Of a stretch of DNA of 64,000 nt, positions 9,547 through 56,278 are shown piece by piece. The notes beneath the pieces are model-generated. The model made no database searches, was not told the DNA's origin, and saw only the letters and a list, made by a program, of their open reading frames with translations. Positions within the stretch are counted from its first letter, which is position 1. The number at the start of each line of letters is the position of its first letter. The stretch comes from Candidatus Poribacteria bacterium (GTDB lineage: Bacteria; Poribacteria; WGA-4E; WGA-3G): NCBI GenBank assembly GCA_963665235.2, contig CAXXLX010000001.1, forward strand, positions 1,728,001 to 1,792,000. The letters run 5' to 3'. Made by a program: the position numbers and the translations under genes.

Positions 9547-10125
9547 TCACCAGATGTTAGCGAGACCGTAAGTTAACTCAATATGTGCTTTCATGCCTTT
9601 ATCTGTGACCTTAACAAGATTTTTGAAGAACGCCTCAGTCTCTTGAATACCTCTACTTGTTAGGCGATTTCTCTTGCTAAGAGATTGAGTCCAAGTATTA
9701 GAGGGTATATCAAAACCGTGTGCGAAACTATGGCGTACCTCTACTATATCATCTAATTTCTGGCGTTCGATCCAGAGCAAAGTGTTGCTTGGATCATATC
9801 CTGTGTACTGGATAAGTATATTTCGGGTATTTTCAGCATTTGGCGTATTAAACCTTTTTAAGACGTTTTCTGCCCTTTGTCGGGCAATTGTGTAAATAGC
9901 TTGAAATTTAGGGGCCGACGGATCCGCTATCACGTCGTAGAAGTCACGCACAAGATTTTTTATATATGCATTCCACGCTCCAACATAAGCCGTGAGTCCT
10001 GCATGATAGTAAACCTGGACTTCATCATACGACATAGGGCGCAATCGTTTATCTGTTGCTGCTCTGCGAAGTATTTGTATACGATTCACTGAGGTTGTGT
10101 AAGTTGATGCTGCTGGTGATTTCAC
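9547..10125 (-). CDS. HEPN-domain protein (putative RNase)
   Basis: R-X4-H motif VRHSFAHG; N-terminal AYVGAWNAYIKNL helix typical of HEPN. Confidence 0.7.
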   Translation of the reverse strand: MKSPAASTYTTSVNRIQILRRAATDKRLRPMSYDEVQVYYHAGLTAYVGAWNAYIKNLVRDFYDVIADPSAPKFQAIYTIARQRAENVLKRFNTPNAENTRNILIQYTGYDPSNTLLWIERQKLDDIVEVRHSFAHGFDIPSNTWTQSLSKRNRLTSRGIQETEAFFKNLVKVTDKGMKAHIELTYGLANIW

Positions 10126-10134
10126 AGGGAACCC

Positions 10135-11241
10135 TTAAAGACAATTGACAAATTCAGTGAGTGCTTTTCGATACCGCTCTAAAGGTTCAGAATTGATTTG
10201 AACCTGTTTACCGTGAACCTTATGTGGTCCGGCTCGAAGACTATTTAACGGTATTCCTTTGAGTGTCATAATCACACATGCACTGTGATAGTCAGGTATC
10301 TCTATGAACCTCTCACTTGGTAACTCTTTAGGGTTCGCATAGATCAGACGATGCTTTTCATGGAGGCTATCTAACGTTGTCTTAATAGACTCACTCACAG
10401 CCTCAAAAGCTCTACTTGCTTTGCCACGATAGATGGTTACTCGGTTACTAACAAAGGTGTGGAGTTTCGGAATATCTAAACCCTCTTCCTTTGCCCTATT
10501 GGCAAAGTTGATTCTTGCATAAGTTGCCATCTTCGGGTCGGTTTCCATACTGTGACCATAAAGCAGCGCGACGACATTCCCAACAGCCCTGCGCGAACTA
10601 TCATCAGGTGTAAAAGGCACAACAAGATTTTCAGATGCAGCGAATGCTAATTGAGTATAGATAGCAAAACTCGGATTACAGTCAAGGATAAAAAGTGTAT
10701 CTCTGTCCCCGCTCCGTTGACGTAAAGCGATTGTCAAGTCTTTAATCCAACTGAGCACTTGTCTCCATGCAGTTACTGGAAGGGCAAGCTGAGATGTTTG
10801 GCGAATCGCTTCTGAAAGGATTTCCAACAGGTAGTCGCCGCATACTAAAAGTAAATTGCCTGGCAGTTTCGCGTTGAAGTTCCGAGGTCGACACACATAG
10901 GGAGACACATTCTCGATAGGATGGAACGGAGAATTCAACCGTGCTTCAAGGTAACCTGCGACTGTAGCACGCGGTTTTTTTCCTATCAGTTTGTTTATCA
11001 CATCATAATTTTTGTGAATTACATCATAATTTTCGTCGTCGGACATTTCATCGTTAGCATCGGTCCTGATTGAGATGTCAGAATCCAGAAGCAACATCTC
11101 AGAGACACTTGCCTGCGGGCAAAGGTCTATCACATAGATATCGGTGTCCGGGTAAGTGCGGGCATATTCGGTGGCTGCGACAAAGCTTAAGAAACTTTTA
11201 CCAACCCCGCCTTTATTGTTCCAAAACGCATAAGCTGTCAT
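10135..11241 (-). CDS. ParA/Soj-like ATPase
   Basis: YAFWNNKGGVGKS deviant Walker A, IDLCPQAS, LDCNPSF. Confidence 0.88.
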   Translation of the reverse strand: MTAYAFWNNKGGVGKSFLSFVAATEYARTYPDTDIYVIDLCPQASVSEMLLLDSDISIRTDANDEMSDDENYDVIHKNYDVINKLIGKKPRATVAGYLEARLNSPFHPIENVSPYVCRPRNFNAKLPGNLLLVCGDYLLEILSEAIRQTSQLALPVTAWRQVLSWIKDLTIALRQRSGDRDTLFILDCNPSFAIYTQLAFAASENLVVPFTPDDSSRRAVGNVVALLYGHSMETDPKMATYARINFANRAKEEGLDIPKLHTFVSNRVTIYRGKASRAFEAVSESIKTTLDSLHEKHRLIYANPKELPSERFIEIPDYHSACVIMTLKGIPLNSLRAGPHKVHGKQVQINSEPLERYRKALTEFVNCL

Positions 11242-11288
11242 AATCCCTTCCTTTCTCAAAAAAGTGAAAACGTTTAACCTCGTTTAGA

Positions 11289-11317
11289 ATTTTAACACAA
11301 ATTGGTACGAATGTCAA
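11289..11317 (-). promoter_or_regulatory. Sigma70-type promoter of ParA-HEPN operon
   Basis: Minus strand TTGACA-17-TAAAAT. Confidence 0.6.
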
Positions 11318-11425
11318 AAGATTTTTGCCTTTTGTTTTTGAAAAAAAATCGTCAATTTCACAGAAACGTGATATAATGTTTATCAGAAACCTATTTAGCG
11401 ATTAAAAGTTTGGAGATGTGAAAAA

Positions 11426-13017
11426 ATGCGTCGTTTCGAAACTCAAGGCCGTGTGTATCCTGAACATAACTACTTCGTCCCTCGCACCTCGGAGGTCAAG
11501 GATTTTATTGCCCGTGCCAAAGCGGGACGGTATATCGTCCTCTTCGCACCACGACAGACCGGGAAAACAACCTTCTTCCGATTAGCACTTGATGAACTCG
11601 CGCACAACGATGCAACCTATCTTCCAATTTATCTCAATTTTGAGGTGTACGAAGACTGCACACCTTCAGATTTCTACGGGGGCCTTGCAGAGGATATACA
11701 TGAGAAAATTGTGGAGGTTTTTCAGACGCAGGGAGAGGCGTTGCCGGAGACGCTAACGCATTTTTTAGAGAATGCACAGCTAACAGACCAACTTTCAATG
11801 CGAAGATTCTTCAGAGAATTGGCACGTTTTCTGAAGGACCGGCGGGTTGTCCTCATCATTGACGAGTTTGATGCCATTCCGCGTGGTGCATTGAAAGGAT
11901 TTCTCCGTTGGCTCCGGGATACCTATCTATCGGGCAAGACGCGATGTCCGCATAGCGTCTGTCTTGTCGGCGTTAAGAGCATCATGCAACTTGACTATGA
12001 CAGGTCCATTTCCCCCTTCAATATCCAAGATGAGTTTCACCTACCCAATTTTACGTTGGAACAAGTGTGCGAACTCCTATCACAATATACTGATGAAGTC
12101 GGACAAGCCTTCGCATCGGAGGTCATCACGTCTCTCTATAAACAGACTGCCGGGCAACCCTTCCTCGTCAACCGAATAGCGCAAATACTCACTGAAGAAT
12201 TGGATATTCCGAAACGGAGACGCTGACAATGATGCACTTCGCACGGGCACACAAGCAACTCCTAACGGAAAGGAATACGAACATTGAGCATCTAAGAACG
12301 AATGTCCGACGGGACCGGCGTTTTGAAAAGATTCTATTGCGTATCGCTTCTTATGAAAAAGGTCTACGCTTCAATCCAGATGATGACCTTATGAACGACC
12401 TTGTAACTTATGGGGTTATCAGGGAAGCGGCTGATGGTATGTGTGAGATTATCAACCCAATTTATCAGCATCGTATCCTACAGATATTCAAACCGACCTT
12501 TAACGGACTTGAAGACATATACTTCCCCGAAGACTCCGATGTGAATTTTATTGATTATCTCACATCTACAGGTGAACTCAAGATGGAGCCGCTACTCAAT
12601 AATTTCCAAGCGTTCATCGCACGCGCTGGGTTCCGTATCCTACAGGTGCCGAAGACACCTCAAGAATATGTCGGGCAAAATCTACTTTATGCCTATCTGG
12701 ATCACTTTGTTCATATTGTGGGCGCGGCTATGTTTTTAGAAGTTCAAACGGGACGGGGTAGAATAGACCTCCTTATTCTCCACAATCAGCAAAAGTACAT
12801 CATTGAGACAAAGATATGGGAGGGAAATAGCTACTACCAAGCTGGTAAAAAGCAGCTATCAGCCTATCTCAAATTGGAGGGGGCAGCCGAGGGATACTAT
12901 ATCGTCTTCGACCACCGCATGAATTCAATACCGCAGAGAGAAATAGAAACCGTGGATGGTGTGAAGATTCGGAGTTATGTCATTCCTGTGATGCAAGAAC
13001 GTCCCTCAGCCGTTTAG
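11426..13017 (+). pseudogene. AAA ATPase + PD-(D/E)XK nuclease, split by a 1-nt frameshift (ORFs 11426..12226 and 12229..13017)
   Basis: APRQTGKT, IIDEFD, GRIDL..IETK; CCGAAACGGAG here vs CCCAAAACGGAG in the intact paralog. Confidence 0.75.
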
Positions 13018-13147
13018 ATGAAAAAGGATTTTGGACTTACGTCTCTTCTGCTTCTGGAAAGAGCGCAGCTAACCGCGCATTCACAGAAACGTGATATAAT
13101 GTTTATCAGAAACCTATTTAGCGAGCAAAACCTGGAGATGTGAAAAA

Positions 13148-14740
13148 ATGCGCCGTTTCGAAACTCAAGGCCGTGTGTATCCTGAACATAACTACTTTGT
13201 CCCTCGAACCTCGGAGGTCAAGGATTTTATTACCCGTGCCAAAGCGGGACGATATATCGTCCTCTTCGCACCCCGGCAGACCGGGAAAACAACCTTCTTC
13301 CGATTAGCACTTGATGAACTCGCGCACAACGATGCAACCTATTTTCCACTTTATCTCAATTTTGAGGCGTATGAAGACTGTAACCCTTCAGATTTTTACG
13401 GGGGACTCACAGAGGATATACATCAGAAAATTGTGGAGGTTTTTCAGACGCGGGGAGAGGCGTTGCCAGAAACACTAACACATTTTTTGGAGAACGTTCA
13501 ACTAACCGATCATCTCTCAACGCGAAGATTCTTCAGAGAATTGGCACGTTTTCTGAAAGACCAGCGGGTTGTCCTCATCATTGACGAGTTTGATGCCATT
13601 CCGCGTGAGGCATTGAAAGGGTTTCTACGTTGGCTCCGCGATACCTATCTATCGGGCAAGACACGATGTCCGCATAGCGTCTGTCTTGTTGGTGTTAAGA
13701 ATATCACACAACTTGACTATGACAGGTCTATTTCGCCTTTCAATATTCAAGAGGAGTTTCACCTGCCCAATTTCACGCTTGAACAGGTGACCGAACTCTT
13801 ATCACAATATACCGAAGAAGTCGGACAAGTCTTTGCATCGGAGGTCATCACGTCTCTCCATAAACAGACTGCCGGGCAACCCTTCCTCGTCAACCGAATA
13901 GCACAAATACTCACTGAAGAATTGAGTATTCCCAAAACGGAGACAATCACCCTATCCCATTTTGCGACAGCACACGCGCTACTTCTTGAGGAAGACAATA
14001 CGAACCTCACACACCTGATAACCAATATCCGTAGAGACCGCCGTTTCGAAAACTTCCTCATGGAAATTCTCAATTCCGATGAAGGGGTCCGATTCAACCT
14101 ACGGAATCCACTTATTAATGAATTAGCCACTTATGGGGTCATCACAAAAGGTGCGGACAATCTTTGTGAAATTGTTAACCCGATTTATCTCTATTGCATC
14201 ATTCAGGCGTTCAAACCAGCAGTGAATGGATTGGAGCGGGCTTATTTCCCTGAAGGACAGCTGACCGGCTTTCATACATATCTCACCTCTACCGGAGATG
14301 TTGCTATGGAGGCGTTATTGGATAACTTCCGAGATTTCATCGCACGCGCAGGATATAAGATATTGGAGGTTCCAGAAACGCCACAAGAATATGTCGGGCA
14401 GCACCTGCTCTTTTCCTATCTTGAACTATTTGTCGGGATAGTAGGCGGGGGGTTGTTCCTTGAAGTCCAAACTGGGCGTGGTAAAATAGACCTTCTCATT
14501 AGTCACAACCATCAAAAATACATCGTTGAGACGAAGATATGGCGGGGCTTAGTTCACTATGAGGCGGGCAAAAAACAGCTTGCCGCGTATGTGAATTTAG
14601 CGGGTGCGGTAGGTGGATATTATATCATTTTTGACCATCGGCACTCCCCAGAATCGCGGATAGAAACAGAGACGATTGACGGTGTAAAGATTCGGAGTTA
14701 TGTCATTCCTGTGATGCAGGAACGTCCCTCAGCCGTTTAG
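13148..14740 (+). CDS. AAA ATPase with C-terminal PD-(D/E)XK nuclease domain
   Basis: APRQTGKT, IIDEFD, TAGQPFLV, EVQTGRGKIDL...IVETK. Confidence 0.88.
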   Translation: MRRFETQGRVYPEHNYFVPRTSEVKDFITRAKAGRYIVLFAPRQTGKTTFFRLALDELAHNDATYFPLYLNFEAYEDCNPSDFYGGLTEDIHQKIVEVFQTRGEALPETLTHFLENVQLTDHLSTRRFFRELARFLKDQRVVLIIDEFDAIPREALKGFLRWLRDTYLSGKTRCPHSVCLVGVKNITQLDYDRSISPFNIQEEFHLPNFTLEQVTELLSQYTEEVGQVFASEVITSLHKQTAGQPFLVNRIAQILTEELSIPKTETITLSHFATAHALLLEEDNTNLTHLITNIRRDRRFENFLMEILNSDEGVRFNLRNPLINELATYGVITKGADNLCEIVNPIYLYCIIQAFKPAVNGLERAYFPEGQLTGFHTYLTSTGDVAMEALLDNFRDFIARAGYKILEVPETPQEYVGQHLLFSYLELFVGIVGGGLFLEVQTGRGKIDLLISHNHQKYIVETKIWRGLVHYEAGKKQLAAYVNLAGAVGGYYIIFDHRHSPESRIETETIDGVKIRSYVIPVMQERPSAV

Positions 14741-15622: not shown

Positions 15623-16429
15623 TTAGGAAGTTGATTTTTGTGCTGCGATTTTTTGTTTTTGCTCCCTCAGTTTTTCTTGTATTTCGAGTTTTAGCCGAGA
15701 GAACAATTGATCCGATTCAGGTAACGTAATTGCATCGTTGTACAGACCATGGTAACTAACAGTAGCGTTCCGAAATCCCTGACTGGGTTTATTTAGAAAA
15801 CGAACGAGTAACTCAAAAAGCAGCTTTCCTCGAAGTTGAAGATTATATGCTGCCCTTATGTCTTTAACCCTCTGATGCTCTAAAGGGAGAAAATCTAAAC
15901 CAGATGCCAAAGTAGTTTTTCCAAGCGGAATAACTTTATTTAAACGATGTGCAACCTCCACATATTCCTCATCTCGGATGGACTTAAAGGTTTTTCCTAG
16001 GTTCTTCCCTAAATATTCTTCCACTTTATAGGCAAACCACATGCTAATTGAATCTAGCGTTTGATTGTATTCTATCTTATTTCCTACGCGACCCTTTAAA
16101 TTGACATGTGAGTACAGATCGTTTTCAATGCTATATCCTTCTGTCCAAATAATGTCGTTATATTGAGCCGGGATGCCTCTGAATAACCACATATCCTGAT
16201 CTGCGATAAAAGCAACAGGCACGTTGGCAAATTCACTTCTGCGCTCATAAACCTGAAGTAATTGTGGCCTTCCCCCTGCATACAGAACTTCTGCTGTTAT
16301 TTCCATTCGTTCGATTAATTCTCGATAGATGATTTGATCATCTTTCCCCTCAACGACAATATTAGGTACCCCAGAATGTTTCAGAGCCCCAACTACTACG
16401 TTTACTGTCATAGGATTTGGTGTTGGCAT
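15623..16429 (-). CDS. DUF4435/TOPRIM-like nuclease (PARIS AriB-like)
   Basis: IVVEGKDD, FIADQD, YSIEN, LRGK motifs; directly downstream of an ABC ATPase. Confidence 0.78.
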   Translation of the reverse strand: MPTPNPMTVNVVVGALKHSGVPNIVVEGKDDQIIYRELIERMEITAEVLYAGGRPQLLQVYERRSEFANVPVAFIADQDMWLFRGIPAQYNDIIWTEGYSIENDLYSHVNLKGRVGNKIEYNQTLDSISMWFAYKVEEYLGKNLGKTFKSIRDEEYVEVAHRLNKVIPLGKTTLASGLDFLPLEHQRVKDIRAAYNLQLRGKLLFELLVRFLNKPSQGFRNATVSYHGLYNDAITLPESDQLFSRLKLEIQEKLREQKQKIAAQKSTS

Positions 16430-16449
16430 TTAGATTCTCCTTTGATATA

Positions 16450-17574
16450 TTACGACTCATCAAACGGAAGTTCCTTGTCCGGGTACTGGGTATAGATAAA
16501 AGGTGAGTGTGTCGCGATGAAAAATTGATTGCCTGTCGCTTGTTGAAGCAAAACCCGTAGCAAGGAACGCTGCCAGTCCAAGTGCAGGCTTAGCTCCGGT
16601 TCATCAATGAAAATCGCTGTATCACTACTAAACGCGTTGTAGCACAGAAAACTGAGCATCTGTTTCTCCCCAGAAGAGAGCTGATCTGAGGGTCTGGTAC
16701 CGTTTTCCTTTCCAAGCGTAAACCCTTCAGCGACTTTAATTCCACTAGAAAAAATCCTATCAACAAAATCGTTTAAAGACGTTAAGGGTTTGCGTAACTC
16801 CTCTACCTCAGAAGCAGCTTCAGCAAGCTTTTGGCGAATCTGCTCCAAGATAGAATTAGTCTCTTGGAGTTCTGAAATAGGGTTGGCGGGGATTTTTTCT
16901 TCAAACTCACCTGACAAGTCTGCATAGATTGCATTTATCTTCTCAGAAATCTCAATATGTTCCTGCGGAACCAGTTCGACTATATCGTTTGTTGAAAATG
17001 AAACAACGAATTTATGATTGCCGACAGATCTCATATCCGCGAATTGTGCTATTACATCTTGAAGTGTTTTTGTTTCCCTTGTCGGGGCGTGTCCAGAACT
17101 CGTTTCTCGTCTTATTCGTCCAGGGGAACTAGATTCTGGAATTCGAGAAAAACCGCCTTCAATTCTTCTAAAACTTGGAAAGAATAGGCTGCTCTTCATA
17201 GTTTCCATTATACCTGCTTTGAGATCTGCACATTTCGTGTCAACATCTTCGTAATTGGTAATTAGCTCCTGGTCATATTCGTAATCGGTAGCTAGCTCAG
17301 GTTCATGTTCACCCGAAAAAGACCATCTAATAAGAAATTTATCGGCCTCATTGGTAATAGATAATTTAAATTGGCTGGTAGCAACCGAAACGAAGTCAAA
17401 CCTGATGCCAAGGGCACGTTCAATTTGGCCGCTGAAGAGGTACCATATTAGTTGCAGCAGCGTCGTCTTGCCTGAACCGTTTGCTCCGGTAATAATGTTC
17501 AAGTCTTCATTGAATTCTAACGTTGTGTTAACCTCGCCATTCAAGCCTTCAACTTCAAATCTTTCGATAATCAA
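16450..17574 (-). CDS. ABC-type (AAA_21/AAA_15) ATPase (PARIS AriA-like)
   Basis: GANGSGKT, LSSGEKQ, IDEPELSLH, ATHSP. Confidence 0.85.
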   Translation of the reverse strand: MIIERFEVEGLNGEVNTTLEFNEDLNIITGANGSGKTTLLQLIWYLFSGQIERALGIRFDFVSVATSQFKLSITNEADKFLIRWSFSGEHEPELATDYEYDQELITNYEDVDTKCADLKAGIMETMKSSLFFPSFRRIEGGFSRIPESSSPGRIRRETSSGHAPTRETKTLQDVIAQFADMRSVGNHKFVVSFSTNDIVELVPQEHIEISEKINAIYADLSGEFEEKIPANPISELQETNSILEQIRQKLAEAASEVEELRKPLTSLNDFVDRIFSSGIKVAEGFTLGKENGTRPSDQLSSGEKQMLSFLCYNAFSSDTAIFIDEPELSLHLDWQRSLLRVLLQQATGNQFFIATHSPFIYTQYPDKELPFDES

Positions 17575-17740: not shown

Positions 17741-19161
<1,421 letters not shown>

Positions 19162-19230: not shown

Positions 19231-20409
19231 ATGAAACAGAAATATCAGATTGAAACTGTCACGCCTGTTCACATCGGTTCAGGTGAAACGTTGAACCATA
19301 TAAATGGTTACTACACCAACGGGAAGTGGTATCACATCGATTTGGAACGCGTCTTGGCGCATCCAAGTGCCGATGCCAATGTCTTAACGAGCGACATGGG
19401 GCAACGCAATTTCCGGTGGGAACGTTACCTTCGTCAGCACAATATGAATCCCGCGGAACTTTCTGCTTCTAGTTTTCCATGTCCACAAAACCCCGAAGAG
19501 GTTGAAATCCGGGAGGCGATCAAGGTGACTCATGATCAGCCTTTTATTCCAGGAAGCACACTCAAAGGTGCAATTCGGACAGCCCTATTATGGGAAATCC
19601 TGAATCAAAGCAGTGACGTTTATGAAAAGAGTCAAGAGCATTTGAACGAACTGATAAAGCGAGGCTCTCGTGGGAATCCCAGAAGAGAGCAACCTGCACG
19701 GCGGATAGAGACTCTCGCTTTCAGTAGTGATCCGAAACGCGGAGATCCGAATAGAGACCTTTTCCGCGCGTTACAGGTGAGTGATACTGCCCCACTTGAG
19801 AGTGATGCGCTTGAGATTGGCATGGCCTGGACGATGACGATTAATCGAAACAACAAACTCGTCCAGAAAATAGACAGAGGACGAGAGTATAAAAACTTCG
19901 TGCAGCAGATTCAAACGGGGCAGCGTCTGACGTTTACTCTCAAGATTGACGAGATGCTTTTCCGAGAAGACGAAAAGAATCGACTCAGTTTTACTGACCT
20001 ACAGCAGAAAACGCTCCAAGATATAGCGGAGGTGTGTCGCTCGGTAACCGACCAGCTCATGAAAAGTGAACGGGACTTCTTTTCCTACTATAGCCTCCCA
20101 GAAATCGCGAACATCTATGATAAACTCATCTCTTTAAATAGGAACCTCCCAGAAGGGGCATTCCTTTTGCAAATTGGGTGGGGCACCGGCTATCAAGCCA
20201 AAACCGTTTCGGCTGTTTTTACAGATGACGCAGAATTGCCTGTAAACTGGATGGACCTGCGTGAACGTTTTCGGTTAGGTGAGAGTCGTTCCCGACGCGG
20301 GCACTACGACGAACGCGAGTTCCCAAAAACACGGCGGATTTTATATCGTGGACAAAATCCGATTGCCCCCTTCGGTTGGATTAAAATTTCACCAGATGAA
20401 ACTGCTTGA
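19231..20409 (+). CDS. csm5: Type III-A RAMP Csm5
   Basis: TPVHIGSG, PFIPGSTLKGAIRTA, LQVSD, IGWGTG, PKTRR, PFGW. Confidence 0.92.
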   Translation: MKQKYQIETVTPVHIGSGETLNHINGYYTNGKWYHIDLERVLAHPSADANVLTSDMGQRNFRWERYLRQHNMNPAELSASSFPCPQNPEEVEIREAIKVTHDQPFIPGSTLKGAIRTALLWEILNQSSDVYEKSQEHLNELIKRGSRGNPRREQPARRIETLAFSSDPKRGDPNRDLFRALQVSDTAPLESDALEIGMAWTMTINRNNKLVQKIDRGREYKNFVQQIQTGQRLTFTLKIDEMLFREDEKNRLSFTDLQQKTLQDIAEVCRSVTDQLMKSERDFFSYYSLPEIANIYDKLISLNRNLPEGAFLLQIGWGTGYQAKTVSAVFTDDAELPVNWMDLRERFRLGESRSRRGHYDEREFPKTRRILYRGQNPIAPFGWIKISPDETA

Positions 20410-20434
20410 CAAAAAATGCCAGAGATGCTAAATT
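20406..20434 (+). promoter_or_regulatory. Internal promoter upstream of cas10
   Basis: TTGACA-17-TAAATT with extended TG. Confidence 0.45.
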
Positions 20435-20519
20435 TAGTGTCCTAGCTTTGATAGTTCCGCGCCTCAAATATTGGTGCCGGAAGCACGGACACCTTAAACA
20501 ATTAACTGGACGAAACATC

Positions 20520-22841
20520 ATGAATCCTATTCTAAAATGGGCTCTACAGATCTTACGACAAATAGAAGAAACATCCATCGACAAAGACGAATCGGTGTCC
20601 GATGCATTGGAACTTGTAGGTATTGGAGCTGATCAGGTTCAAGTCAATCGCCAACCCTTACATTCCATCTTCTCGGTGACTGGTAAGAATCCCTCGGTCG
20701 TTAAGAAAGATATTCCCTGGCAGGTGTTGGACCCGCAAGAGATTGTTTATCCAACGGAGGATGCCGATAACACCGCGTTGAACATTCCTGAGCTTGAGCC
20801 GGATTGGGAAAGGTTTCTAGCGAACGAAAATCTCGCGCTTGTCCTAATCGAAAAGTATGGCACGTTTCTATCCATTTCACGTGATGTTCCGCACATCTCC
20901 TTCTACGATGCGGTTAAATCCGCAGCGGCGATTCACGATTGCCTTGTCCGTGATTCGGTAGATAAGGAGAAACCTTTTTTATTAGTTTCCGGGGATTTTT
21001 CTGGAATACAAGATACAATTTACACGATCGCCTCAAGTGGTGCGTTGAAAACGCTACGTGCACGTTCGTTCATGTTAGAACTTCTAACAGAACACATCAT
21101 CTATGAAATTCAGCAGCCTACGGGTTGTGGTCGCTATAGTCTTATCTTTTCAGGCGGTGGTGGGTTTAGTCTTCTCGTTCCGAACACAAGTGAGAATCAA
21201 GAGGCAATTGGCGATTTTATAAAAATTGTCAATAATTGGATGCTTGAGCAGTTTGGCTTGCAGCTATTCCTCGCTGTGCATTGTGAGCCTGTGAGTAAGG
21301 CAGACATCACAGGTAAAGGGTTCAAAGACATTTGGGAGTCCATGGCGGACAAGATGGCGAAGCAGAAGAAGCGTAAATTTTGGGATACCCCTGACTTTGA
21401 CAACCTATTCTGTCCAAAGATGCCGAAGCAATTGACAAACCGAGAGGCTTGTCGGATCACACATCGTGATGATCTACCGAATAGCGAAATGACTGATTGG
21501 GATGATGAGCCAAATGAGGAGGGTGAGAAGAGGCGCGTAAGCAAACTTGCCTACCGTTTGTGGGAATTAGGGGATCGGTTGACAGAGTTCAAGTACATCT
21601 TTAGACGTTCTTCACCCGTAGATGATTTTAAGGATGGGACGCTCCTATTTCCGACACATGATGGTTGCCAGGCAGAATATCAAACAACCGCTGATTTTGC
21701 ACAGATTAGTGATTATGAGGTTCGATGGTTTGTGAACAGTTGGGACGTTGGAAGTTACAAGGATAACAAGACCTTCCCGTTCCTCTTTGGTAGTTATGTT
21801 AAATCTGTAGCTGATTTACCGGGCGAAGTGCAAGACCATGAGAAGGAAGAGTACTTAAAAGACCACGGAAAGCAGATGCACCAACCAAAACGTGTAACTG
21901 CGTCTTTCTCTGGATTGGCAAAAGCGGCGAAGGGGATAAAACTCATCGGCTGCTTACGGATGGATGTGGACAATTTTGGTGAGCTGTTTTCCGGCGAGCT
22001 AGTGAAATCAGGTATCGCTGGACTCTCAAATCTCTCGCGCAGCATGAATCTGTTTTTTAAGGGGTACCTCAACGAAATTTGCGGCATGAATTTAGGTGAT
22101 TTGACGAAGGAGGGTTATCCGCTTGATATCACCGGAGAAAAACTGTCCCAAACAGATCGAAACCATCGGTACGTATCTATCGTCTATGCAGGCGGTGACG
22201 ATTTGTTTATCGTTGGTGCTTGGGATGATGTCGCCGAATTAGCGTTTGATATTAACACCTGTTTCAGAGAATTCTCCTGTTGCAACTCTGAGGTTCACCT
22301 TTCCGCCGGCGTAACGCTTCACAAGCCGAAGTTCCCACTATATCAGATGGCGAAAATGGCAGAGGATGCAGAAAAGGCCGCAAAGGCAAACGAAGAGAAG
22401 GAAAGTCTCTCGCTATTCTATACGGATACTCTCAGAAGATATAATAAGTTCCTGAATGACCGCATTAAGCAGGAAAACCGAAGGCGTACGAGTGCTGGTA
22501 AACAGTCTGATGATAGAATCGCGCTGGCTTCTAGATGGGATGAATATGACAGTGTTATTCAATTGACAAAGCAGTTGTACAAGTTGCGCCCGGATGTTCC
22601 GCATGGCCTCTACCGAAAACTGTTTGAGACGCTCAGAATTTGGCAAGAGGAAGGACCTTTGTATATGCCAATGCTCTCCTATACCAAATATCAGTTTGGC
22701 AAACAACAGGAAGGAACACCAGAAGCGAAAGAGTTAAAGGCGTTGCTAACAACCCTATTTCAGTCCGATCAGATGCGGAAATTACATATTCCGCTACATT
22801 GGGTGGAATATTTGAGTCGAGAAGGTGGAGGAGAAAGTTAA
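20520..22841 (+). CDS. cas10: Cas10/Csm1, HD-less, cyclase motif intact
   Basis: GDFSGIQ..IY, LRARSF, RMDVDNFG, YAGGDDLFIVGAW. Confidence 0.93.
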   Translation: MNPILKWALQILRQIEETSIDKDESVSDALELVGIGADQVQVNRQPLHSIFSVTGKNPSVVKKDIPWQVLDPQEIVYPTEDADNTALNIPELEPDWERFLANENLALVLIEKYGTFLSISRDVPHISFYDAVKSAAAIHDCLVRDSVDKEKPFLLVSGDFSGIQDTIYTIASSGALKTLRARSFMLELLTEHIIYEIQQPTGCGRYSLIFSGGGGFSLLVPNTSENQEAIGDFIKIVNNWMLEQFGLQLFLAVHCEPVSKADITGKGFKDIWESMADKMAKQKKRKFWDTPDFDNLFCPKMPKQLTNREACRITHRDDLPNSEMTDWDDEPNEEGEKRRVSKLAYRLWELGDRLTEFKYIFRRSSPVDDFKDGTLLFPTHDGCQAEYQTTADFAQISDYEVRWFVNSWDVGSYKDNKTFPFLFGSYVKSVADLPGEVQDHEKEEYLKDHGKQMHQPKRVTASFSGLAKAAKGIKLIGCLRMDVDNFGELFSGELVKSGIAGLSNLSRSMNLFFKGYLNEICGMNLGDLTKEGYPLDITGEKLSQTDRNHRYVSIVYAGGDDLFIVGAWDDVAELAFDINTCFREFSCCNSEVHLSAGVTLHKPKFPLYQMAKMAEDAEKAAKANEEKESLSLFYTDTLRRYNKFLNDRIKQENRRRTSAGKQSDDRIALASRWDEYDSVIQLTKQLYKLRPDVPHGLYRKLFETLRIWQEEGPLYMPMLSYTKYQFGKQQEGTPEAKELKALLTTLFQSDQMRKLHIPLHWVEYLSREGGGES

Positions 22842-22911: not shown

Positions 22912-23964
22912 ATGGGTGATTTAAGAATCGTCAAACTTCGCTTCAGGTCAGCACTTCATTTAGGGACAGATATCCCTGGAATCGGGATTGAGGACAGTCT
23001 GACAATGGCTCACTCGGATACGTTGTTCAGCTGCCTAATCAATGCCTACGCCGAACTTCACTCCGGAAATCCAAACGCTGTTGACCCGTTGTTGGCACCG
23101 TTCCATGAGGGAAACCCTCCGTTTCGTATTTCGTCAGCGTTTCCATTCCAACAGAGTGAAAATAAAGTAAGGTATTATGTTCCGAGACCTCTGATAGATC
23201 CGCTAGAATTTTATGACCCCGGAGATGGACAGAGTGTTAGAAAGCTTTACGGTAAATTAGTCCGAAATCTGCCGTTCGTCAGTCTTGAGAGATTCAAAGG
23301 TTATTGGCTAGGCGAAGGAACAGATATCAATCTGGAAAAAAAAGGCTTAGAAACCGCAAATCAGGAAGTTCGCGGCTTATACGAACAAACAATTCGTCCA
23401 CAGCATACCAGGGACCGATTAACTGATACCACAGAAATCTACCATACAGGCTTAGTTTATTTCGCTCCTAATTCTGGATTGTATTTCCTGATTGAAATCA
23501 ACGATACATCCATCTTAAGTTGGGAGGACTTCCGGGCAGTCCTTGACTTGGCAGCATCAAACGGATTGGGGGGACGCCGCAGTCATGGAAATGGGGCTTT
23601 TGAGGTTAGAGAAATTGAGGAATTAGATGAAACATGGCAAGACTTATTTAAGCAGAAACAGGATGGATTCGTTAATCTGTCGCTCTATTGGCCTAAAACT
23701 CCTGGTCGCCTTGATCCAGTGGCATATCAGTTGGTGCCTCGACAGGGATGGTGTTATTCATCGGTTACCCCAACGCAGATGAAACGTAAAGCAGTCACAA
23801 TGTTCGGTGAGGGGTCCGTTTTCCGTAACGAGCCGAAAGGCGCGCTTGCAGACGTAACACCGGACAAGGGATTCACAGCACATGGACTCTATCGGTCCGG
23901 AATTTCAATTTCGTTGCCGATTAAGATCTTGGAAAAAGAAGATAAGGAAGATACGGAGGAATGA
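22912..23964 (+). CDS. csm4: Type III-A RAMP Csm4 (Cas5)
   Basis: HSDTLFS, ISSAFP, GLGGRRSHGNG, MFGEGSVF. Confidence 0.93.
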   Translation: MGDLRIVKLRFRSALHLGTDIPGIGIEDSLTMAHSDTLFSCLINAYAELHSGNPNAVDPLLAPFHEGNPPFRISSAFPFQQSENKVRYYVPRPLIDPLEFYDPGDGQSVRKLYGKLVRNLPFVSLERFKGYWLGEGTDINLEKKGLETANQEVRGLYEQTIRPQHTRDRLTDTTEIYHTGLVYFAPNSGLYFLIEINDTSILSWEDFRAVLDLAASNGLGGRRSHGNGAFEVREIEELDETWQDLFKQKQDGFVNLSLYWPKTPGRLDPVAYQLVPRQGWCYSSVTPTQMKRKAVTMFGEGSVFRNEPKGALADVTPDKGFTAHGLYRSGISISLPIKILEKEDKEDTEE

Positions 23965-23968
23965 TACA

Positions 23969-25774
23969 ATGAACTTGCGGGAAATACTTAATAATTTTAA
24001 CAAAGAAGTCGCTTGGCGCGAATTTCGAGATAGAATAGTAGATGCTGTGCTAGACTACAATGAGGCGATTGCGGACGAAGTCGAAAACCCAGGAGATTCT
24101 CTAAATGGACTTCTACCTATATATTGGCAAATTGTACGGGCGCATAATACCTATAAATGGCCTATTGACCTCAAATTTATTCGCGAAAATCCAGAAGCTG
24201 CTCGAAAGATGTTAAGAGACCACAACCTTGCGGAAAAATTGGACCGGCTGATCGAATTGGACACACAGTGGCGCAAACTCTCCCAAAAAATCGAGGAGCA
24301 AACCGAGCCCGCGAACACACTCAAAACTGAAATAGATACCATCTTGTCGACAATTTCGGATCTGCCTGGCGTAAATTCCCACCCAAGCAATTCTGGCTAC
24401 GATGTTGGCATCTTTCTTGTTGGTTTTAGGAGTCTTCCGATTGTTCTTAGCCTTGCGGAGATTCAACCGCGCCAGGAAATTTATTTCATCCACTCAGAAG
24501 AGACTGGTACAAAGTGCGACGAGATTGCTAATAGAATTGAGGAGATGCTTGAATGTCCTCCTAATCCTTTAAAACCGTTAATCTCCGCCACGGACGCGAC
24601 AGCATTAATTAATCGTGTCCGAAGTGCCAATCGGTGCAAAATAGCGAATCCCTCCGATCCGGTCGAGACATTCAAAGAGATTAAGCGAATCATTGACAGT
24701 CTTGCATCCGACAAAAAAATTGCTCTTGATCTCACGGGTGGAAAGAAGACAATGATTGGCGGCGGTTTCACAGCCGGTTCAATATACTCTCTGTCGCCTA
24801 AATGCGATATGTTTTACGTTGATTCATCGGAGTACGACTCATATCAGGGTGCACCTAAACCAGGGACCGAATTCTTGAGTCAGCTTGACAATCCGTACAA
24901 TGTTTACAATGTGCAGAGCATCCGCGAAGCTGAAGCACTTTTCGATGGACACAATTATGAGGCAGCAGCTAGTTTGTGGGACACTGCTAATGAAAAACTT
25001 AATACCTATGCCAAACAATACGGTTTGCAACATGAGCAGGCTACAGTTCAAAAGAATCTTTATATGGCAAACTGTTACCGTTCTTGGGATGCTTTTGATT
25101 ATTCTGAGGCTCAGAGGCACAAGAATGATAACGGAAACCTATGGAGCTACCATACTAAGCACATTCACAACATTCACAATGATGTTCTTAACATTTTGGT
25201 AGAAGTGAATGATAAACAAACGCTTTTTGCCGATGAAAAAAGAGTTATCCATTTCGCCGTAGATCGATACCAGAATGCAATCAGACGAAAAAATAGTGAC
25301 AAACTCGAGGATGCAATCCTCCGCTTTACACAAGTTGTGGAAATCCTTTGCAACTATAAGATCCGTCAAATCGCACAAGGCGGAGACCTGCTTAACGAAA
25401 ACGGCTCAGTGATAACAACACCAAACACCCAATGGCGGAACTTTAAACTAATCCCCTTTTTGTTTGGAGCCGACCCATCAAGGTATGAAAGAAACGGAGG
25501 AAGATACTTCCAATTTCGAAGAGGGGCAAATGTGTGTTTGGAACTTGAGGATTATCCCGATTTCAACGATATTGGTGAAATAATGGTGCTGATCGAACGT
25601 AGGAATGATTTCGTTCATTTCAATCGTCCTATAGCGGACGAAGCGGAGGAAACAGCGGAAAAATTAAAAAATTTAGCATATCAGTTTCTTCTGAACTTCT
25701 CAACGACCTATCTTCAGAGGATGCGCCTAAATTTCTGCCGTTTATTAGAGCTTCATGAGTTTCGTCTATCCTAA
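23969..25774 (+). CDS. CARF-HEPN effector (Csm6/Csx1-like) with N-terminal SerRS-arm-like segment
   Basis: CARF: FLVGFRSLPIV...ALDLTGGKKTM; HEPN: RRNDFVH; IDLKFIRENPE...ELDTQWRKL...ILSTISDLP near the N-terminus. Confidence 0.85.
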   Translation: MNLREILNNFNKEVAWREFRDRIVDAVLDYNEAIADEVENPGDSLNGLLPIYWQIVRAHNTYKWPIDLKFIRENPEAARKMLRDHNLAEKLDRLIELDTQWRKLSQKIEEQTEPANTLKTEIDTILSTISDLPGVNSHPSNSGYDVGIFLVGFRSLPIVLSLAEIQPRQEIYFIHSEETGTKCDEIANRIEEMLECPPNPLKPLISATDATALINRVRSANRCKIANPSDPVETFKEIKRIIDSLASDKKIALDLTGGKKTMIGGGFTAGSIYSLSPKCDMFYVDSSEYDSYQGAPKPGTEFLSQLDNPYNVYNVQSIREAEALFDGHNYEAAASLWDTANEKLNTYAKQYGLQHEQATVQKNLYMANCYRSWDAFDYSEAQRHKNDNGNLWSYHTKHIHNIHNDVLNILVEVNDKQTLFADEKRVIHFAVDRYQNAIRRKNSDKLEDAILRFTQVVEILCNYKIRQIAQGGDLLNENGSVITTPNTQWRNFKLIPFLFGADPSRYERNGGRYFQFRRGANVCLELEDYPDFNDIGEIMVLIERRNDFVHFNRPIADEAEETAEKLKNLAYQFLLNFSTTYLQRMRLNFCRLLELHEFRLS

Positions 25775-27418
25775 ACCGATGCTGTCGGATAACAACTTCT
25801 CTCGCGCCTCCAATACCTTTGAAACTACTGTTTTGACATCATCTTCATCAACAAACGGGGAGAGAATAAAAGACTTTAAACCGACAATTGGTTCGCCATA
25901 GGTCGTATGTCGGTAACAGTCGGTTGTGGAAATGACGACACCTCGGCCTTCCATCGCCTCTGAATGGACGTATTGGAAGATGTCCCTATTGTAGGCATTA
26001 TGTGTAAGTAGACTTTCGCGATTAGCGGGGTTCTCAAATTCGTCCTGCTTAATTGAAAAGGTATCCACGCCGACAGGATATACCCGGAAAACGGTGACAG
26101 TGCCGAAGTTATCGCGATTCAAGACGGTTGTGCCTTCATGCCCCTCAAGATGTTCGCGCAGGAGTTGCGTCATTTCGACGATGTGTCCGAGGATAGTTTG
26201 TAACCCTTCCCGCCCAAATAGGCGTAGATTGGCAAGGGCTGCAAGGGGGCCCGTCCCCGCTCTGGAGGTCTCTAGGGTGTACATACCGGGCTTATAGTCC
26301 CCAAAGTGATAAAGGTAGGGCATCTGTTCCGGGTGCCGTTTCACTAAAGCCAGCTCAGCTTCGTTTTTCACAAGAAAGAGGCTGGAAATATAGGGGGCAA
26401 AACCGGTTTTGTGGAAATCAATACCGACGGAATCGGCGAGTGATAGATACCTGATCCGGCGGCATGCCCCTGCCAATGCCCGAACAGTCCGCGGGCGGAA
26501 CCCTAGGGGATTCTCTTCAAAATCATAGTCGTTAAACACAGACCATGCCCATCCGATAACTGCATCCGCGTGAATATGCGGTTTGTAATCAAGCTCGAAT
26601 TCCTCAACGAGCGTATTGCGTAATGTCACAATACTCTCCAAATCGTCCAACCCGAATGCATCTGTTGTGCCCAAAGTTGCAATAATAGCGGCAATTTTCT
26701 TTCCGTCTGTGAGTGCTTTTCGAGCTGCCTGCTCTAATTGCTCAAGGTCCATTTCGTTCTGTGCGGTTGTCGGAATAGTAATGAGATTATTCGTTCCGAT
26801 GCCGAGCCATCCGACGATGCTGGTTGCACAATAATGCCCGGCATCTGACACGAACACGACCACCTCTTCGGGGGTGCCGTTTTGGATAGTCCCTGGGCAC
26901 GCCTTCTCTAAACCGATTTTCACACCGTAGAGCGTTGTTCCGGTGCCGCCGAAGGTAAACACACCACCTGCCTGTTCTGGCTTATAACCAATCATCTGTG
27001 CGGTTATTCCAACTGCTTCAACTTCAGCCAACGCTACCAGACGACTGTATTCATCCCAAGCGATATTAGGATTGTAGAGGGAAGCGATGAGTACCCCAAT
27101 GACGCTTGGAATCGTCGGAGGGGGCACAACGTTCTGTTGTGTGCGAGGATGTCCGAAGATGCTCATCCCGCGCAGATAGCTGACGAGGTCAGCCGTGACA
27201 TTTTCAACGGAGGATATAGTTTCAGGGAGTGTTGTGTAGCGTGCTGCTTCAAAGTCCCCTTGGACAATGTCGCCGAGCATCGGTAGATGGGTTTTGAGCG
27301 CGTCCACCTGGTCCAAGGCACGCATAATGGAGTGTACAAAATAGGAGTCGTGAATCGGATCGGATATGGGCTGCGGGAAGGTGAGCCGGATTTTGTTTAA
27401 GATGTCGCGATATGTCAT
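25766..27418 (-). CDS. PLP-dependent group II amino-acid decarboxylase
   Basis: FTFGGT, TLGTTD, HADAVIG, DFHK (PLP lysine). Confidence 0.88.
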   Translation of the reverse strand: MTYRDILNKIRLTFPQPISDPIHDSYFVHSIMRALDQVDALKTHLPMLGDIVQGDFEAARYTTLPETISSVENVTADLVSYLRGMSIFGHPRTQQNVVPPPTIPSVIGVLIASLYNPNIAWDEYSRLVALAEVEAVGITAQMIGYKPEQAGGVFTFGGTGTTLYGVKIGLEKACPGTIQNGTPEEVVVFVSDAGHYCATSIVGWLGIGTNNLITIPTTAQNEMDLEQLEQAARKALTDGKKIAAIIATLGTTDAFGLDDLESIVTLRNTLVEEFELDYKPHIHADAVIGWAWSVFNDYDFEENPLGFRPRTVRALAGACRRIRYLSLADSVGIDFHKTGFAPYISSLFLVKNEAELALVKRHPEQMPYLYHFGDYKPGMYTLETSRAGTGPLAALANLRLFGREGLQTILGHIVEMTQLLREHLEGHEGTTVLNRDNFGTVTVFRVYPVGVDTFSIKQDEFENPANRESLLTHNAYNRDIFQYVHSEAMEGRGVVISTTDCYRHTTYGEPIVGLKSFILSPFVDEDDVKTVVSKVLEAREKLLSDSIGLG

Positions 27419-27434
27419 GTGGCCGTCCCATTTT

Positions 27435-28922
27435 TCAGAGATGTGCTATTGCGTTCCGAACTCGCTCTAGAACCGTGTCTCTGCCGAGTAGGATAATAAT
27501 ATCAAACAGGCTTGGTCCGAACGATGTGCCTGTCAGCGCAATTCGCAAGGTTTGCATTGCTACAACCCGTTTGATGTCGTTCTCATCCGTGTATTTATAG
27601 ATTGCAGTTTCAACTGTCTCCGCGTCAAAAGCGGGGATTTCTTCCAAAATCTGCAAGAGATTTGTCAGGATTTCAGCCGTTTTCTGCCGTTTTTCTGCGG
27701 AGCTGCCCCACCATTTTTTGACCGCCTTCTCTTCGTATTCATCAACGTCCGCAAAGAAATAACGGGTTTGTGGAACGATATCCTCTAACGTTGTGAGCCG
27801 TTCGCCGACAGCCTCAACGAGCTTCTCAAGGTGGGTGCGACGTTCCATTGTCAAGTCGGCTGTCTTGACCAAACCTGCTTCCTGCCAAAAGGGTATCACA
27901 GCATCGGTTCGAGCGGAAAGCGAGAGTTGGGCGATGTAGTGGGTATTGAGCCATTGCAATTTTTTTATATCAAAAACACTGCCGCTTTTGCCAACGCGCG
28001 CGAGGTCAAATTTCTCTATGAGTTCCGTAACAGAGAAAATCTCCTGTTTGTCGTCGTAGGACCACCCGAGTCTGGCAACGAAGTTAATCATCGCTTCAGG
28101 CAGATACCCCTGTTCACGATACCGATTGACAGCGACAAGGTCACCGTGATGACGTTTGCTTAGCTTCCTGCCAGTCTCATCCAAGACAAGGGGGATATGT
28201 GCAAATTTAGGTGGTGTAAAACCTATTGCGTTCGCAATAGCAATCTGTTTCGAGGTGTTATTGAGATGCTCTGTTCCGCGGATGACATGTGTAATCCGCA
28301 TGTCCGCATCGTCTATAATCGAGGCAAAATTGTAACTCGGCATTCCATTTGAACGGACGATAACCTCATCCTCTAGGGTGTTTGCATCTATATCCCGCGT
28401 GCCGAGGATAAGGTCAGGGACGTGTATCGGGTCGTCAGGCATCTTAATTCGGACTGTAGGTTTTCTGCCCTGCGCGGAAAAACGTTGTTTGTCTGCGAGC
28501 ATCAGGTGTCGGCATCTCCTGTCATAAGAGAGGGTCTGCTTTTCAGCGCGCGCTTGCGCCCGAATTTCTGCTAACTCCTCAGGTGTGCAGTAGCAGTGAT
28601 AGGCGTTTTCCTCTTGAAGCAGTTGTTCGACGTAAGGCTCGTAAATATGTCTCCGTTCTGATTGTACATAGTGCTCGGTCCAGTCGATGCCTAACCATTT
28701 GAGGGATTCGTAAATATGGCGCATAGATTCATCGGTAGACCGTGCTGTATCGGTATCATCAATGCGGAGTATGAACGTGCCGTTGTGCTGTTTGGCAAAT
28801 AACCAATTGAATAACGCGGTGCGTGCGCCGCCGATGTGTAAGAAACCGGTGGGGGATGGTGCCATTCGGACGCGGACGTGGTTTTTCACTGGGGTTGTTG
28901 CGTTGCTAGATGTTTCGGTCAT
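27435..28922 (-). CDS. gltX: Glutamate--tRNA ligase
   Basis: [19 protein letters not shown]; ATG overlaps the glnS stop. Confidence 0.96.
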
Positions 28923-30667
28923 TTCCGTGCCCCCTGAATTTTTGCCCAAGTATCTCGAAGTGGTACTGTCCTATTGAATACCAATTTTTCTTGCGTTGTA
29001 TCCACATCGACACAAAAGTATCCCATTCTGAGGAACTGATATCGTGTTTCGGGGGGTGCGCCGTTGAGACTCGGTTCAACTTTGCATCCATCTATAATCT
29101 CCAAGGAGTTCGGATTGATAAACTGTGTCCACTCCGTGCCATCCGCTGCGTTTTCTGGTTCGCGTTCGGTGAATAGGGTGTCGTAGAGGCGGACTTCAGC
29201 GTCCACGGCGTGTTGGGCAGAAACCCAATGTAACGTGCCTCGTACCTTGCGTCCATCTTCGGACCAGCCGCCTCGTGTTTCGGGGTCATAAGTGCAATGA
29301 ATCTGAACGATTTCGCCTGTGTTTGGGTCTTTGACAACGCGTTCGCAACGGATATAGTAAGCGTGCTTGAGGCGTACTTCTCGTTCTGGTGCCAATCGGA
29401 AAAATTTTCGGGGTGGGTTTTCCATAAAATCTTCGCGTTCTATGTAGAGTTCACGTGAGAACGGAATTTTGCGTGTGCCGGCGTTTTCATCTTCAGGGTT
29501 ATTGTCAGCGTCAAACATTTCCACTTTTCCATCTGGATAGTTGTCAATGATAACTTTAACAGGATTAAGGACAGCCATGACGCGCGGTGCACGCTGATTC
29601 AGGTCACTCCGTATAGAATACTCAAGTTGGCTCATCTCGATTAAATTATCTGCCTTTGAAACCCCGATTCGGTTGCAAAAATCACGAATGGCTTCTGGCG
29701 TATACCCGCGGCGACGCATTCCGGCGAGCGTAGGTAACCTTGGGTCATCCCAGCTGTTGACGTGTCCTTCCTGTAAGAGGACTTTGAGCTTCCGTTTGCC
29801 GAGCACGGTGTATGTGAGATTTAAGCGAGCGAATTCTATCTGCCGGGGTTGGTAAATCTCAAGTTCCTTCAAAAACCAGTCGTAGAGGGGGCGGTGGTCT
29901 TCAAACTGAACGTCACATAAAGAGTGTGTTATGCCTTCGATGGAATCGGATTGTCCATGGGTAAAGTCGTAGGTTGGATAGATACACCATGCGTCGCCGT
30001 GTCGATAGTGGTGTGCTCGGAGGATACGATACATGACAGGGTCACGCATATTTAGATTTGGACTGGTCATGTCAATTTTTGCGCGGAGCGTTCGGGCTCC
30101 GTCTGGAAATTCGCCGTTGCGCATCCCGCGGAAAAGCGTTAAATTCTCCTCTACTGTCCGGTTTCGGTAAGGGCTGTCTTTGCCGGGGGTCACTAAAGTG
30201 CCGCGATACGTTCGCATTTGGTCGGGTGTTAGGTCACAAACGTAAGCCTTGCCTTTTTCGATGAGTTTGATAGCGTATTCATAGAGAGTTTCGAAATAAT
30301 CTGATGCGTGATATTCGCGTTCTTTCCAATCAAACCCGAGCCATCGGACATCGCGTTTAATTCCCTCTACATATTCAATTTCTTCTGTGAGCGGGTTGCT
30401 GTCATCAAATCGTAGGTTGTAAAGTCCGCCATAATTTTCGGCGATTCCGAAGCTGATGCATATAGCTTTAGCGTGGCCGATATGAAGATACCCGCTGGGT
30501 TCCGGTGGAAATCGGGTGTGGACCCTGCCTTCATACCTATTTGCTGCGATGTCTTCTTCGATTGCTTGCTGTATAAAGTTAGTGTCCGAGGCGGTGTTAG
30601 TGTTTTCTTGTGCTTTCGTGTTCGGTCTGTTTTTGGAGGCCTTTAAGTTGGCATCTGCATGTTTCAT
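28919..30667 (-). CDS. glnS: Glutamine--tRNA ligase
   Basis: [34 protein letters not shown]. Confidence 0.96.
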
Positions 30668-34310: not shown

Positions 34311-34392
34311 ATTGGCAATTGGCAATTAGCAATTAGCAATTAGCAAGAGAAGAAATTGTTTTCTTTCTTTGGTTTTCAATAGCCAACAGCCA
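34311..34392. repeat. Heptamer tandem repeat (TTRGCAA)n / (AAYAGCC)n REP-like hairpin family D
   Basis: Related blocks at ~38942-39050, 48158-48280, 49690-49826 and 56387-56417, all intergenic. Confidence 0.75.
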
Positions 34393-48152: not shown

Positions 48153-48293
48153 ATAGCGATTGGCAATTAGCAATTGGCAATTGGCAATTGGCAATTGGCA
48201 AGAGGGTTTGAAGGGAAACAGGTCTCTGAAGCGCGTCAGAGTCCTCTTTCCCTTGCCAATAACCATAAGCCAACAGCCATAAAAGGGTTGAGA

Positions 48294-49673: not shown

Positions 49674-49827
49674 CTTTTTGTCTCCTTTTAATTAGCGATT
49701 AGCGATTAGCGTGTTAGCAGTCAGCAGTTAGCGAATAGCAAGAGGTTGTGATTATAAACAGACATCTGAAGTGCATCAGACATTTCTTGCTAATAGCCAA
49801 TAGCCAATAGCCAATAGCCAATTAGGT

Positions 49828-56095: not shown

Positions 56096-56278
56096 AGGAC
56101 TTACGCACCTGCACATTGCAGGCACAATCGGAGACCTTCTCCATACACCCCATAGCACAAATTGCATAAGTCGGGCGTTCGTAGACACACATACGAATGT
56201 GCGTAAATCTCCTGTTATTTGGTTATTAGAGTCTATTCAGCTGTAAAAAGATAGTAAAAAATTCAGGGCTATAAACAT
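56096..56278. mobile_element. MITE-like repeat, copy 2
   Basis: Matches 47988-48152. Confidence 0.65.

Follow-up and report, generated by a model that had tools for sequence, protein, structure and literature searches.

The window, the whole 64,000-nucleotide (nt) stretch of Candidatus Poribacteria DNA analysed here, contains a type III-A CRISPR operon that ends in a csm6-type gene, and within this gene we identified a 207-nt in-frame insertion derived from serS, the gene for seryl-tRNA synthetase (SerRS). We give a probability of about 0.65 to the reading in which the encoded protein (P0001) is an ordinary Csm6, gated by cyclic oligoadenylate (cOA), that carries a tolerated, probably neutral and drifting helical insert of serS origin. 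The initial annotation of this DNA had described a CARF-HEPN effector fused to a SerRS-like tRNA-binding arm, and had proposed that the RNase might be steered to, or regulated by, specific tRNAs. We recovered the reading frame and the peptide that it quoted, together with the motifs DLTGGKK and RRNDFVH (residues 544–550), and the parts of the gene are as follows.

23969..24160, + strand: family-specific N-terminal helical domain, residues 1–64, conserved across homologues
24161..24367, + strand: 207-nt in-frame insertion, residues 65–133, made up of one CCT codon and 68 serS-derived codons at 24164–24367; absent from 119/119 other listed homologues
24271..24277, + strand: junction of a 38-codon deletion of the arm tip, placed by nucleotide alignment (114-nt gap)
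24398..24898, + strand: CARF domain, residues ~144–310, with DLTGGKK at residues 254–260 (nt 24728–24748), placed by alignment to Thermus thermophilus Csm6 (TtCsm6)
24908..25771, + strand: 6H and HEPN region, residues ~314–601, with the R-x4-H motif R545–H550 (nt 25601–25618); PF22205 and PF09670 below cut-offs

A serS segment in the linker of a csm6 gene

Residues 66–124 matched the Pfam profile Seryl_tRNA_N (PF02403) with 38.8 bits against a cut-off of 28.2 (E = 1.2e-9), covering profile positions 2–61 of 108. In the window's genome this profile exceeded its cut-off at only two places, true serS (a 431-residue frame) and the csm6 open reading frame. At the DNA level, 24100–24420 aligned with the genome's own serS in two blocks, the first with 83% identity over 98 nt (E = 6.7e-22) and the second with 76% over ~125 nt (E = 6.3e-18), which rules out the profile match as a generic coiled-coil false positive.

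The insert is homologous to codons 2–37 and ~76–107 of serS. Homology begins exactly at codon 2, opens with 27 identical nt (24164–24190) and stops just past the codons for IPNMP, the end of the SerRS N-terminal domain (N-domain), which in the insert read ISDLP. Between the two blocks the insert shows a 114-nt gap relative to serS, equivalent to 38 codons (serS residues ~38–75). In serS, this gap is flanked by a 7-nt direct repeat, GCGCGAA, an arrangement that would fit deletion of the 38 codons by slippage or microhomology. A segment homologous to the SerRS arm, with both ends recognisable and a tip of ~40 residues missing, is thus just as had been proposed; the fusion itself was confirmed in so far as the segment lies in the csm6 frame, but it is an internal insertion and not a terminal fusion. 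Repeats around the insert gave nothing pointing to a mobile element, and the CCT found at both insert ends is a 3-nt repeat of no weight.

The perfect match at 24164–24190 (27/27 nt) contrasts with ~75% identity for the rest of the insert, and could be due to chance, constraint or gene conversion. Family members show fair conservation of the serS 5′ codons, and matches of short contigs from other organisms produce a depth spike at 24164–24210.

Read-level evidence came from Logan contigs of runs from three samples of one study, one run of which may be the source sample. Contigs spanned the insert with 0 differences in three runs (X1, 23600–24895; X2, 24040–24721; X3, 24052–24408). We regard an assembly or binning artefact, in which serS reads were chimerically joined into csm6, as exceedingly improbable. 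The assembly is of metagenome type with 5.65% contamination, and all runs carrying the locus belong to that one study, possibly including the source sample, and no RNA run is listed among them; however, at only 78% identity to serS of this genome the insert does not consist of reads from that gene, it is in frame with clean junctions, and both junctions are spanned by the contigs of X1, X2 and X3. A simple assembly chimera is ruled out by the 22% divergence from serS together with the contigs of three runs across the insert.

In run X3, one contig of depth 5 joins 24160 to 24371 with GGA between them and carries single-nucleotide polymorphisms at 24082 and 24109; in the assembled sequence, 24368–24370 is GGC (Gly134). 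The contig is a good hint, in its simplest reading, of an empty-site allele with the sequence Trp-Gly-Val-Asn-Ser, from which the assembled allele differs by a clean insertion of 207 nt (24161–24367); the linker of the empty-site allele agrees with the family consensus and with the first linker copy of the closest homologue (P0002, described below). Counting against it, the contig extends only 27 nt beyond the joint (less than the 31 nt set as a rule) and was seen in one of four runs. Other contigs of the minor strain differ at 22/454 nt (~5%), and there is a weak indication that this co-occurring strain keeps the empty site.

Distribution, origin and drift of the insert

A homologue search with P0001 returned 153 proteins at E ≤ 0.001, of which 120 were listed, mostly ~540 residues long. 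In alignments of 35 and then of all 120 listed homologues, a conserved domain of ~64 residues at the N-terminus is followed by a short linker and then by the CARF domain. The linker, taken between the W64 and P139 columns, measures 74 residues in P0001, 25 in P0002 and 0–8 in the other 118, and residues 65–133 were found only in P0001 in the alignment of 35 sequences. A hidden Markov model (HMM) of 30 family SerRS N-domains likewise matched one of the 120, P0001 itself (4e-18), the next best having an E-value of 0.87. Absence of the fusion from homologues had been named beforehand as a result that would speak against the proposal of the initial annotation: P0001 is the one carrier among the 120 listed family proteins, and a family-wide fusion is rejected.

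No other carrier came up among the matches listed in wider searches. With residues 58–142 as query, a region search gave P0001 and six ordinary SerRS of 429 residues among 120 candidates. A library of 1.84 billion representatives gave 31 matches, 0 of them internal in a long protein, in a search of low power that missed full-length SerRS at E ≤ 0.001; all 31 were 47–213 residues long and 30/31 began at residue 2–6, as SerRS N-terminal fragments do. Thirty other genomes of the family have one SerRS N-domain match each, and only the window's genome (G000) has more. Across the phylum, PF02403 matched in 164 of 176 genomes and matched twice in four (G000, G099, G133 and G072); in G099, the second match is a full-length serS (a 434-residue frame). 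In titles and the openings of abstracts, we found no relevant literature linking CARF with seryl-tRNA synthetase.

The closest homologue, P0002 (566 residues), has its 25-residue linker at exactly the site of the serS insertion, after the conserved Trp. In this linker, two copies of a 10-residue unit lie on either side of a spacer of 10 residues, and the SerRS N-domain HMM gave no match to P0002 at E ≤ 10 that would mark it as a remnant of the same insert. Residues 25–64 of the P0002 N-terminus are identical to those of P0001, against an overall identity of ~59–65%. Together, the linker and the identical N-terminus suggest a rearrangement hot spot at this point of the gene, perhaps with mosaic recombination.

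Comparison with the serS genes of 30 family genomes pointed to the donor. Own serS shows the highest nucleotide identity to the insert of the 30, 78.3% over 207 nt (69 shared codons), and serS of the 29 other family genomes reaches at most 70.5%. The insert and own serS alone also share rare synonymous codons, for example at alignment columns 90 and 93 (a codon used in 7% of family genes). On this nucleotide comparison, the donor is the serS of this lineage or of a very close relative, because of both the higher identity and the shared rare codons. We considered a foreign serS as donor because the ~5% divergent minor strain seems insert-free; an own-lineage donor fits the shared rare codons.

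Synonymous divergence (dS) between the insert and own serS is 0.41, with branch values of ~0.12 for the insert and ~0.17 for serS that carry wide errors. The ratio of nonsynonymous to synonymous divergence (dN/dS; Nei-Gojobori) is 0.53 for this pair, compared with 0.06–0.15 between serS genes over the same columns, and nine positions that are invariant in the 29 other family SerRS have been replaced in the insert, including the change from IPNMP to ISDLP. When changes were polarised with outgroups, the insert branch received 20.5 nonsynonymous and 5.5 synonymous substitutions, giving a branch dN/dS (omega) of ~1.06 (binomial p = 0.82 against neutrality), whereas the serS branch received eight of each (omega ~0.28); two codons are ambiguous in these counts.

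The host effector and the shortened arm

Translation of P0001 starts at ATG 23969, which has GGAGG ~9 nt upstream and to which the family N-termini align, and not at the upstream ATG 23882. The N-terminal family domain (residues 1–64) has no Pfam match; in the homologue alignments W16, Y30, L49, P50, Y52, W53 and N60 are near-invariant. For the remainder of the protein, PADLOC called CARF1--CARF_HEPN (4.1e-53), and the best match of phmmer against the PDB was TtCsm6 (8jbb/5fsh; 1e-10), aligned to TtCsm6 residues 107–251. The top eight Foldseek matches were all TtCsm6 with probability 1.00, several with bound cyclic tetra-adenylate (cA4) or its product. TtCsm6 K137 and Y161, both mutated by the depositors, align with K260 and Y283 of P0001, and these two columns, like those of DLTGGKK, are invariant or nearly so in the homologue family. 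Both HEPN residues, R545 and H550, are fully conserved across the alignment of 35 sequences and almost fully across that of 120. Curated models scored below their cut-offs (TIGR02710, 68.9 against 83.9; PF22205, Csm6_6H, 20.4 against 27.6; the Pfam Csm6 HEPN model, 15 bits against 27). Despite these sub-threshold scores, and given the fold match at probability 1.00, P0001 is a member of a divergent Csm6 subfamily. Its identification as a type III CARF-HEPN effector of Csm6 type beside cas10 therefore stands, borne out by PADLOC, the TtCsm6 matches and the III-A operon.

The Csm6 family is patchy among relatives, with a match in 3/41 including the window's genome. A homologue in Candidatus Poribacteria chromosome L021, from the same GTDB family (genome G001), likewise closes a III-A operon, and its match covers only query residues 133–598.

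Judged by these motifs, P0001 is presumably activated by cOA, most likely cA4. It would be a Thermus-type Csm6 of the ordinary kind, acting as a dimeric RNase of CARF-6H-HEPN architecture that is switched on by cOA made by the neighbouring Cas10 and then degrades RNA non-specifically. The 207-nt copy of serS would have entered the linker between the N-terminal helical domain and the CARF domain in frame, most likely by illegitimate recombination or a repair-templated event, and would persist because the linker tolerates a helical protrusion. The insert appears to drift nearly neutrally and to have lost the antiparallel arm of SerRS, and for both reasons it is unlikely to direct the RNase to tRNA.

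Several features of the insert bear on its capacity to act as an arm. By alignment to solved SerRS structures, the arm helices of the genome's own SerRS span residues ~24–66 and 68–103. The deletion of ~38–75 is asymmetric and joins ~14 residues of helix 1 to ~27 residues of helix 2, therefore the native antiparallel pairing cannot form. The full-length AlphaFold2 (AF2) model, with a mean predicted local distance difference test score (pLDDT) of 79, places helices at 88–107 and 113–130, a short hairpin of 20 and 18 residues with a break at the newly acquired Pro114 (pLDDT of the insert 62–87). A fragment model built with a SerRS alignment predicts one continuous helix (mean pLDDT 77; 74–88). 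The two models are mutually inconsistent and neither represents the native SerRS arm, so that the structure prediction (without tRNA) that had been suggested as a check returned a short hairpin or a single helix instead of the arm.

In human SerRS bound to tRNASec, the variable-arm contacts are R44, R47, D51, N54, N58 and S61 of helix 1, R9, and K104/R107 of helix 2; N58 is absolutely conserved, and the arm acts jointly with the catalytic core of the other subunit (PMC4666401). The invariant Asn corresponds to N52 of the genome's own SerRS, which aligns with Asn in two solved bacterial SerRS and lies inside the deleted block. Mapped by conserved spacing, the equivalents of human D51, N54, N58 and S61 would fall in the deletion. 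The insert is acidic (net charge −3, isoelectric point 5.1), as is the native SerRS domain.

With these features in hand, we weighed the proposal that the captured arm is a working module that docks the cOA-activated HEPN RNase on tRNAs with a long variable arm (Ser, Leu, Tyr and Sec), or that makes the enzyme tRNA-regulated, and judge it improbable. The insert is genuinely homologous to a known tRNA-binding domain and has domain-precise boundaries, HEPN and CRISPR nucleases are reported to target tRNAs, and the Cas10 of the operon seems to be without an HD nuclease region, which would leave the response to the CARF effector. Yet the fusion is a singleton (one of 120 listed homologues, with no other carrier in the region and representative searches), the same community probably also includes an allele with the empty site, and most of arm helix 1 is gone, and with it the candidate equivalents of human D51, N54, N58 and S61, own N52 among them. 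Nine SerRS-invariant residues, IPNMP among them, have been replaced, omega is ~1 on the insert branch, the charge is net negative, and the partner-subunit catalytic core with which the arm cooperates in SerRS is absent. The functional tRNA-steering module of the initial annotation is for these reasons disfavoured. Similarly, it is quite unlikely that the shortened arm, caught soon after its capture, is functional and links a cOA-gated Csm6 either to tRNAs with a long variable arm or to the machinery of translation.

A possible though doubtful alternative is co-option for a role that does not involve tRNA, with a helical or coiled-coil protrusion altering oligomerisation, autoinhibition, ring-nuclease timing or partner binding. 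Helix is predicted with moderate confidence in both models, the predicted new turn coincides with the newly gained Pro114, most hydrophobic heptad positions are retained, and the insert directly precedes CARF strand 1. On the other hand, a single known allele offers no conservation to assess, omega is again ~1, the models disagree between hairpin and single helix, and no partner is evident in the operon.

Some observations weigh against a neutrally drifting insert, the reading that we prefer. Its omega rests on ~26 substitutions, and a Fisher test does not separate the insert branch significantly from the serS branch (p = 0.098). No change has occurred in the first nine residues (IDLKFIREN) or at several heptad and many core positions, and 27/27 nt match at the 5′ end. 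Two Arg residues are retained, one in FIREN and one following the Trp, and by spacing they would correspond to R9 and R44 among the human variable-arm contacts. The frame has stayed open over a dS of ~0.4, a weak point given that frame loss would also destroy the downstream CARF-HEPN region. Lastly, the insert ends coincide almost exactly with a structural domain, from codon 2 to IPNMP, which hints at selection for a foldable unit because a random fragment would rarely match domain boundaries.

Genomic setting and comparison with known systems

The type III-A operon has the order csm2-csm3-csm5-cas10-csm4 with the csm6 frame last, and its first five products each scored above the curated NCBIfam cut-off (5/5).

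17790..18335, + strand: csm2; PF03750 87.3 bits, TIGR01870 59.8 bits against a cut-off of 30.6
18256..19161, + strand: csm3; TIGR02582 217 bits against a cut-off of 90; true start probably downstream of the listed TTG
19231..20409, + strand: csm5; TIGR01899 155 bits against a cut-off of 38.3
20406..22841, + strand: cas10/csm1; TIGR02578 446 bits, profile positions 67–753 only; cyclase GGDD at residues 596–599
22912..23964, + strand: csm4; TIGR01903 243 bits, and PF17953
23969..25774, + strand: csm6-type CARF-6H-HEPN effector, 601 residues (P0001); PADLOC, phmmer and Foldseek

The Cas10 adjoining csm6 retains the cyclase motif GGDD. It has no HD dipeptide in its first 120 residues, and its N-terminal HD region is unmatched by TIGR02578, whose match starts at profile position 67. 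From this sequence the HD nuclease domain may be missing, in which case cOA signalling would remain the main output.

There is no CRISPR array in the 64-kb window and no Rfam match. Arrays are present elsewhere in the same genome, one of ~96 repeats lying ~32 kb upstream of the window start; the large ones are at C1:1689050-1696512, C2:140431-156175, C2:254187-257479 and C1:2733943-2735319. They comprise at least three repeat types (30 nt and 37 nt), and 0 of them adjoin the type III-A operon.

Downstream, in the region 25766–30667 (− strand), a gene for a pyridoxal phosphate-dependent decarboxylase runs towards csm6 and shares 9 nt with its 3′ end. Beyond it lie gltX (glutamyl-tRNA synthetase) and then glnS (glutaminyl-tRNA synthetase), which overlap each other by 31 nt. 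Despite these synthetase genes nearby, serS is ~1.4 Mb distant from csm6. Directly upstream of the operon and divergent from it, 15623–17574 (− strand) encodes an ABC-type ATPase of the AAA_15/AAA_21 families (374 residues) followed by a DUF4435 protein (268 residues). NCBIfam matches to this pair were weak, PtuA-like and far below cut-off, and we take the pair to resemble PARIS (AriA/AriB). Further defence-island content spans 9547–14740.

9547–10125, − strand: HEPN_RiboL-PSP protein, adjoining the ParA-like ATPase
10135–11259, − strand: ParA-like ATPase
11426–12226 and 13148–14740, + strand: two AAA_35/AAA_22 ATPases
12229–13017, + strand: NERD/PD-(D/E)XK protein

Tandem Repeats Finder (TRF) reported heptamer repeats of 4–6 copies at 34311–34346, 48154–48201 and 49792–49822, and longer repeats at 56269–56366 and 57921–57983 (49-nt × 2 and 32-nt × 2).

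The locus illustrates cleanly, in nature, how a defence protein can acquire a domain. A segment of an essential housekeeping gene, the size of a domain, has come to lie in frame in the linker between two domains of the effector; its donor can still be recognised in this genome, and the community probably still includes the empty site. We see the value of the locus in this visible domain-capture event and not in a new defence mechanism. A neutral insert, the case favoured by the evidence, would demonstrate the permissiveness of the Csm6 linker, P0002 having been differently rearranged at the same site. Were it functional, it would be a new way to aim a type III effector at tRNA, and the first type III ancillary RNase with a tRNA-targeting domain derived from a synthetase. 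It also serves as a warning against inferring function from a domain fusion in a single genome.

Among known systems, P0001 most resembles TtCsm6 (PDB IDs: 5FSH, 8JBB and 8JH1), with which it shares the CARF-6H-HEPN architecture, the K137 and Y161 equivalents, the R-x4-H motif and a position beside a type III-A csm operon. It differs in its low identity, only ~17–19% over the fold alignment, and in the addition of a 64-residue N-terminal family domain and the 69-residue serS-derived insertion. Compared with the bacterial SerRS arm (PF02403; PDB IDs: 1SER and 6X94), the insert is truly homologous and retains the arm base as well as the IDLKFIREN helix at its start, but it lacks 38 arm codons, has nine invariant residues replaced, has no class II catalytic core and is embedded in another protein. 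A parallel for an arm inside an unrelated enzyme fold is presumably provided by the aminoacyl-tRNA transferases of the FemA/FemX type, which we take to have a long α-helical hairpin inserted as a ‘tRNA-binding arm’ like that of SerRS. The Fem arm is conserved family-wide, and Fem enzymes use aminoacyl-tRNA as substrate, whereas the csm6 insert is a singleton under relaxed constraint in a host enzyme with no known tRNA requirement. Finally, Cas13, which cleaves anticodons, and Cas12a3, which acts on tRNA tails, are immune RNases that act on tRNA and so form a functional analogy for tRNA steering; both apparently recognise tRNA through their own nuclease lobes and not through a captured synthetase arm.

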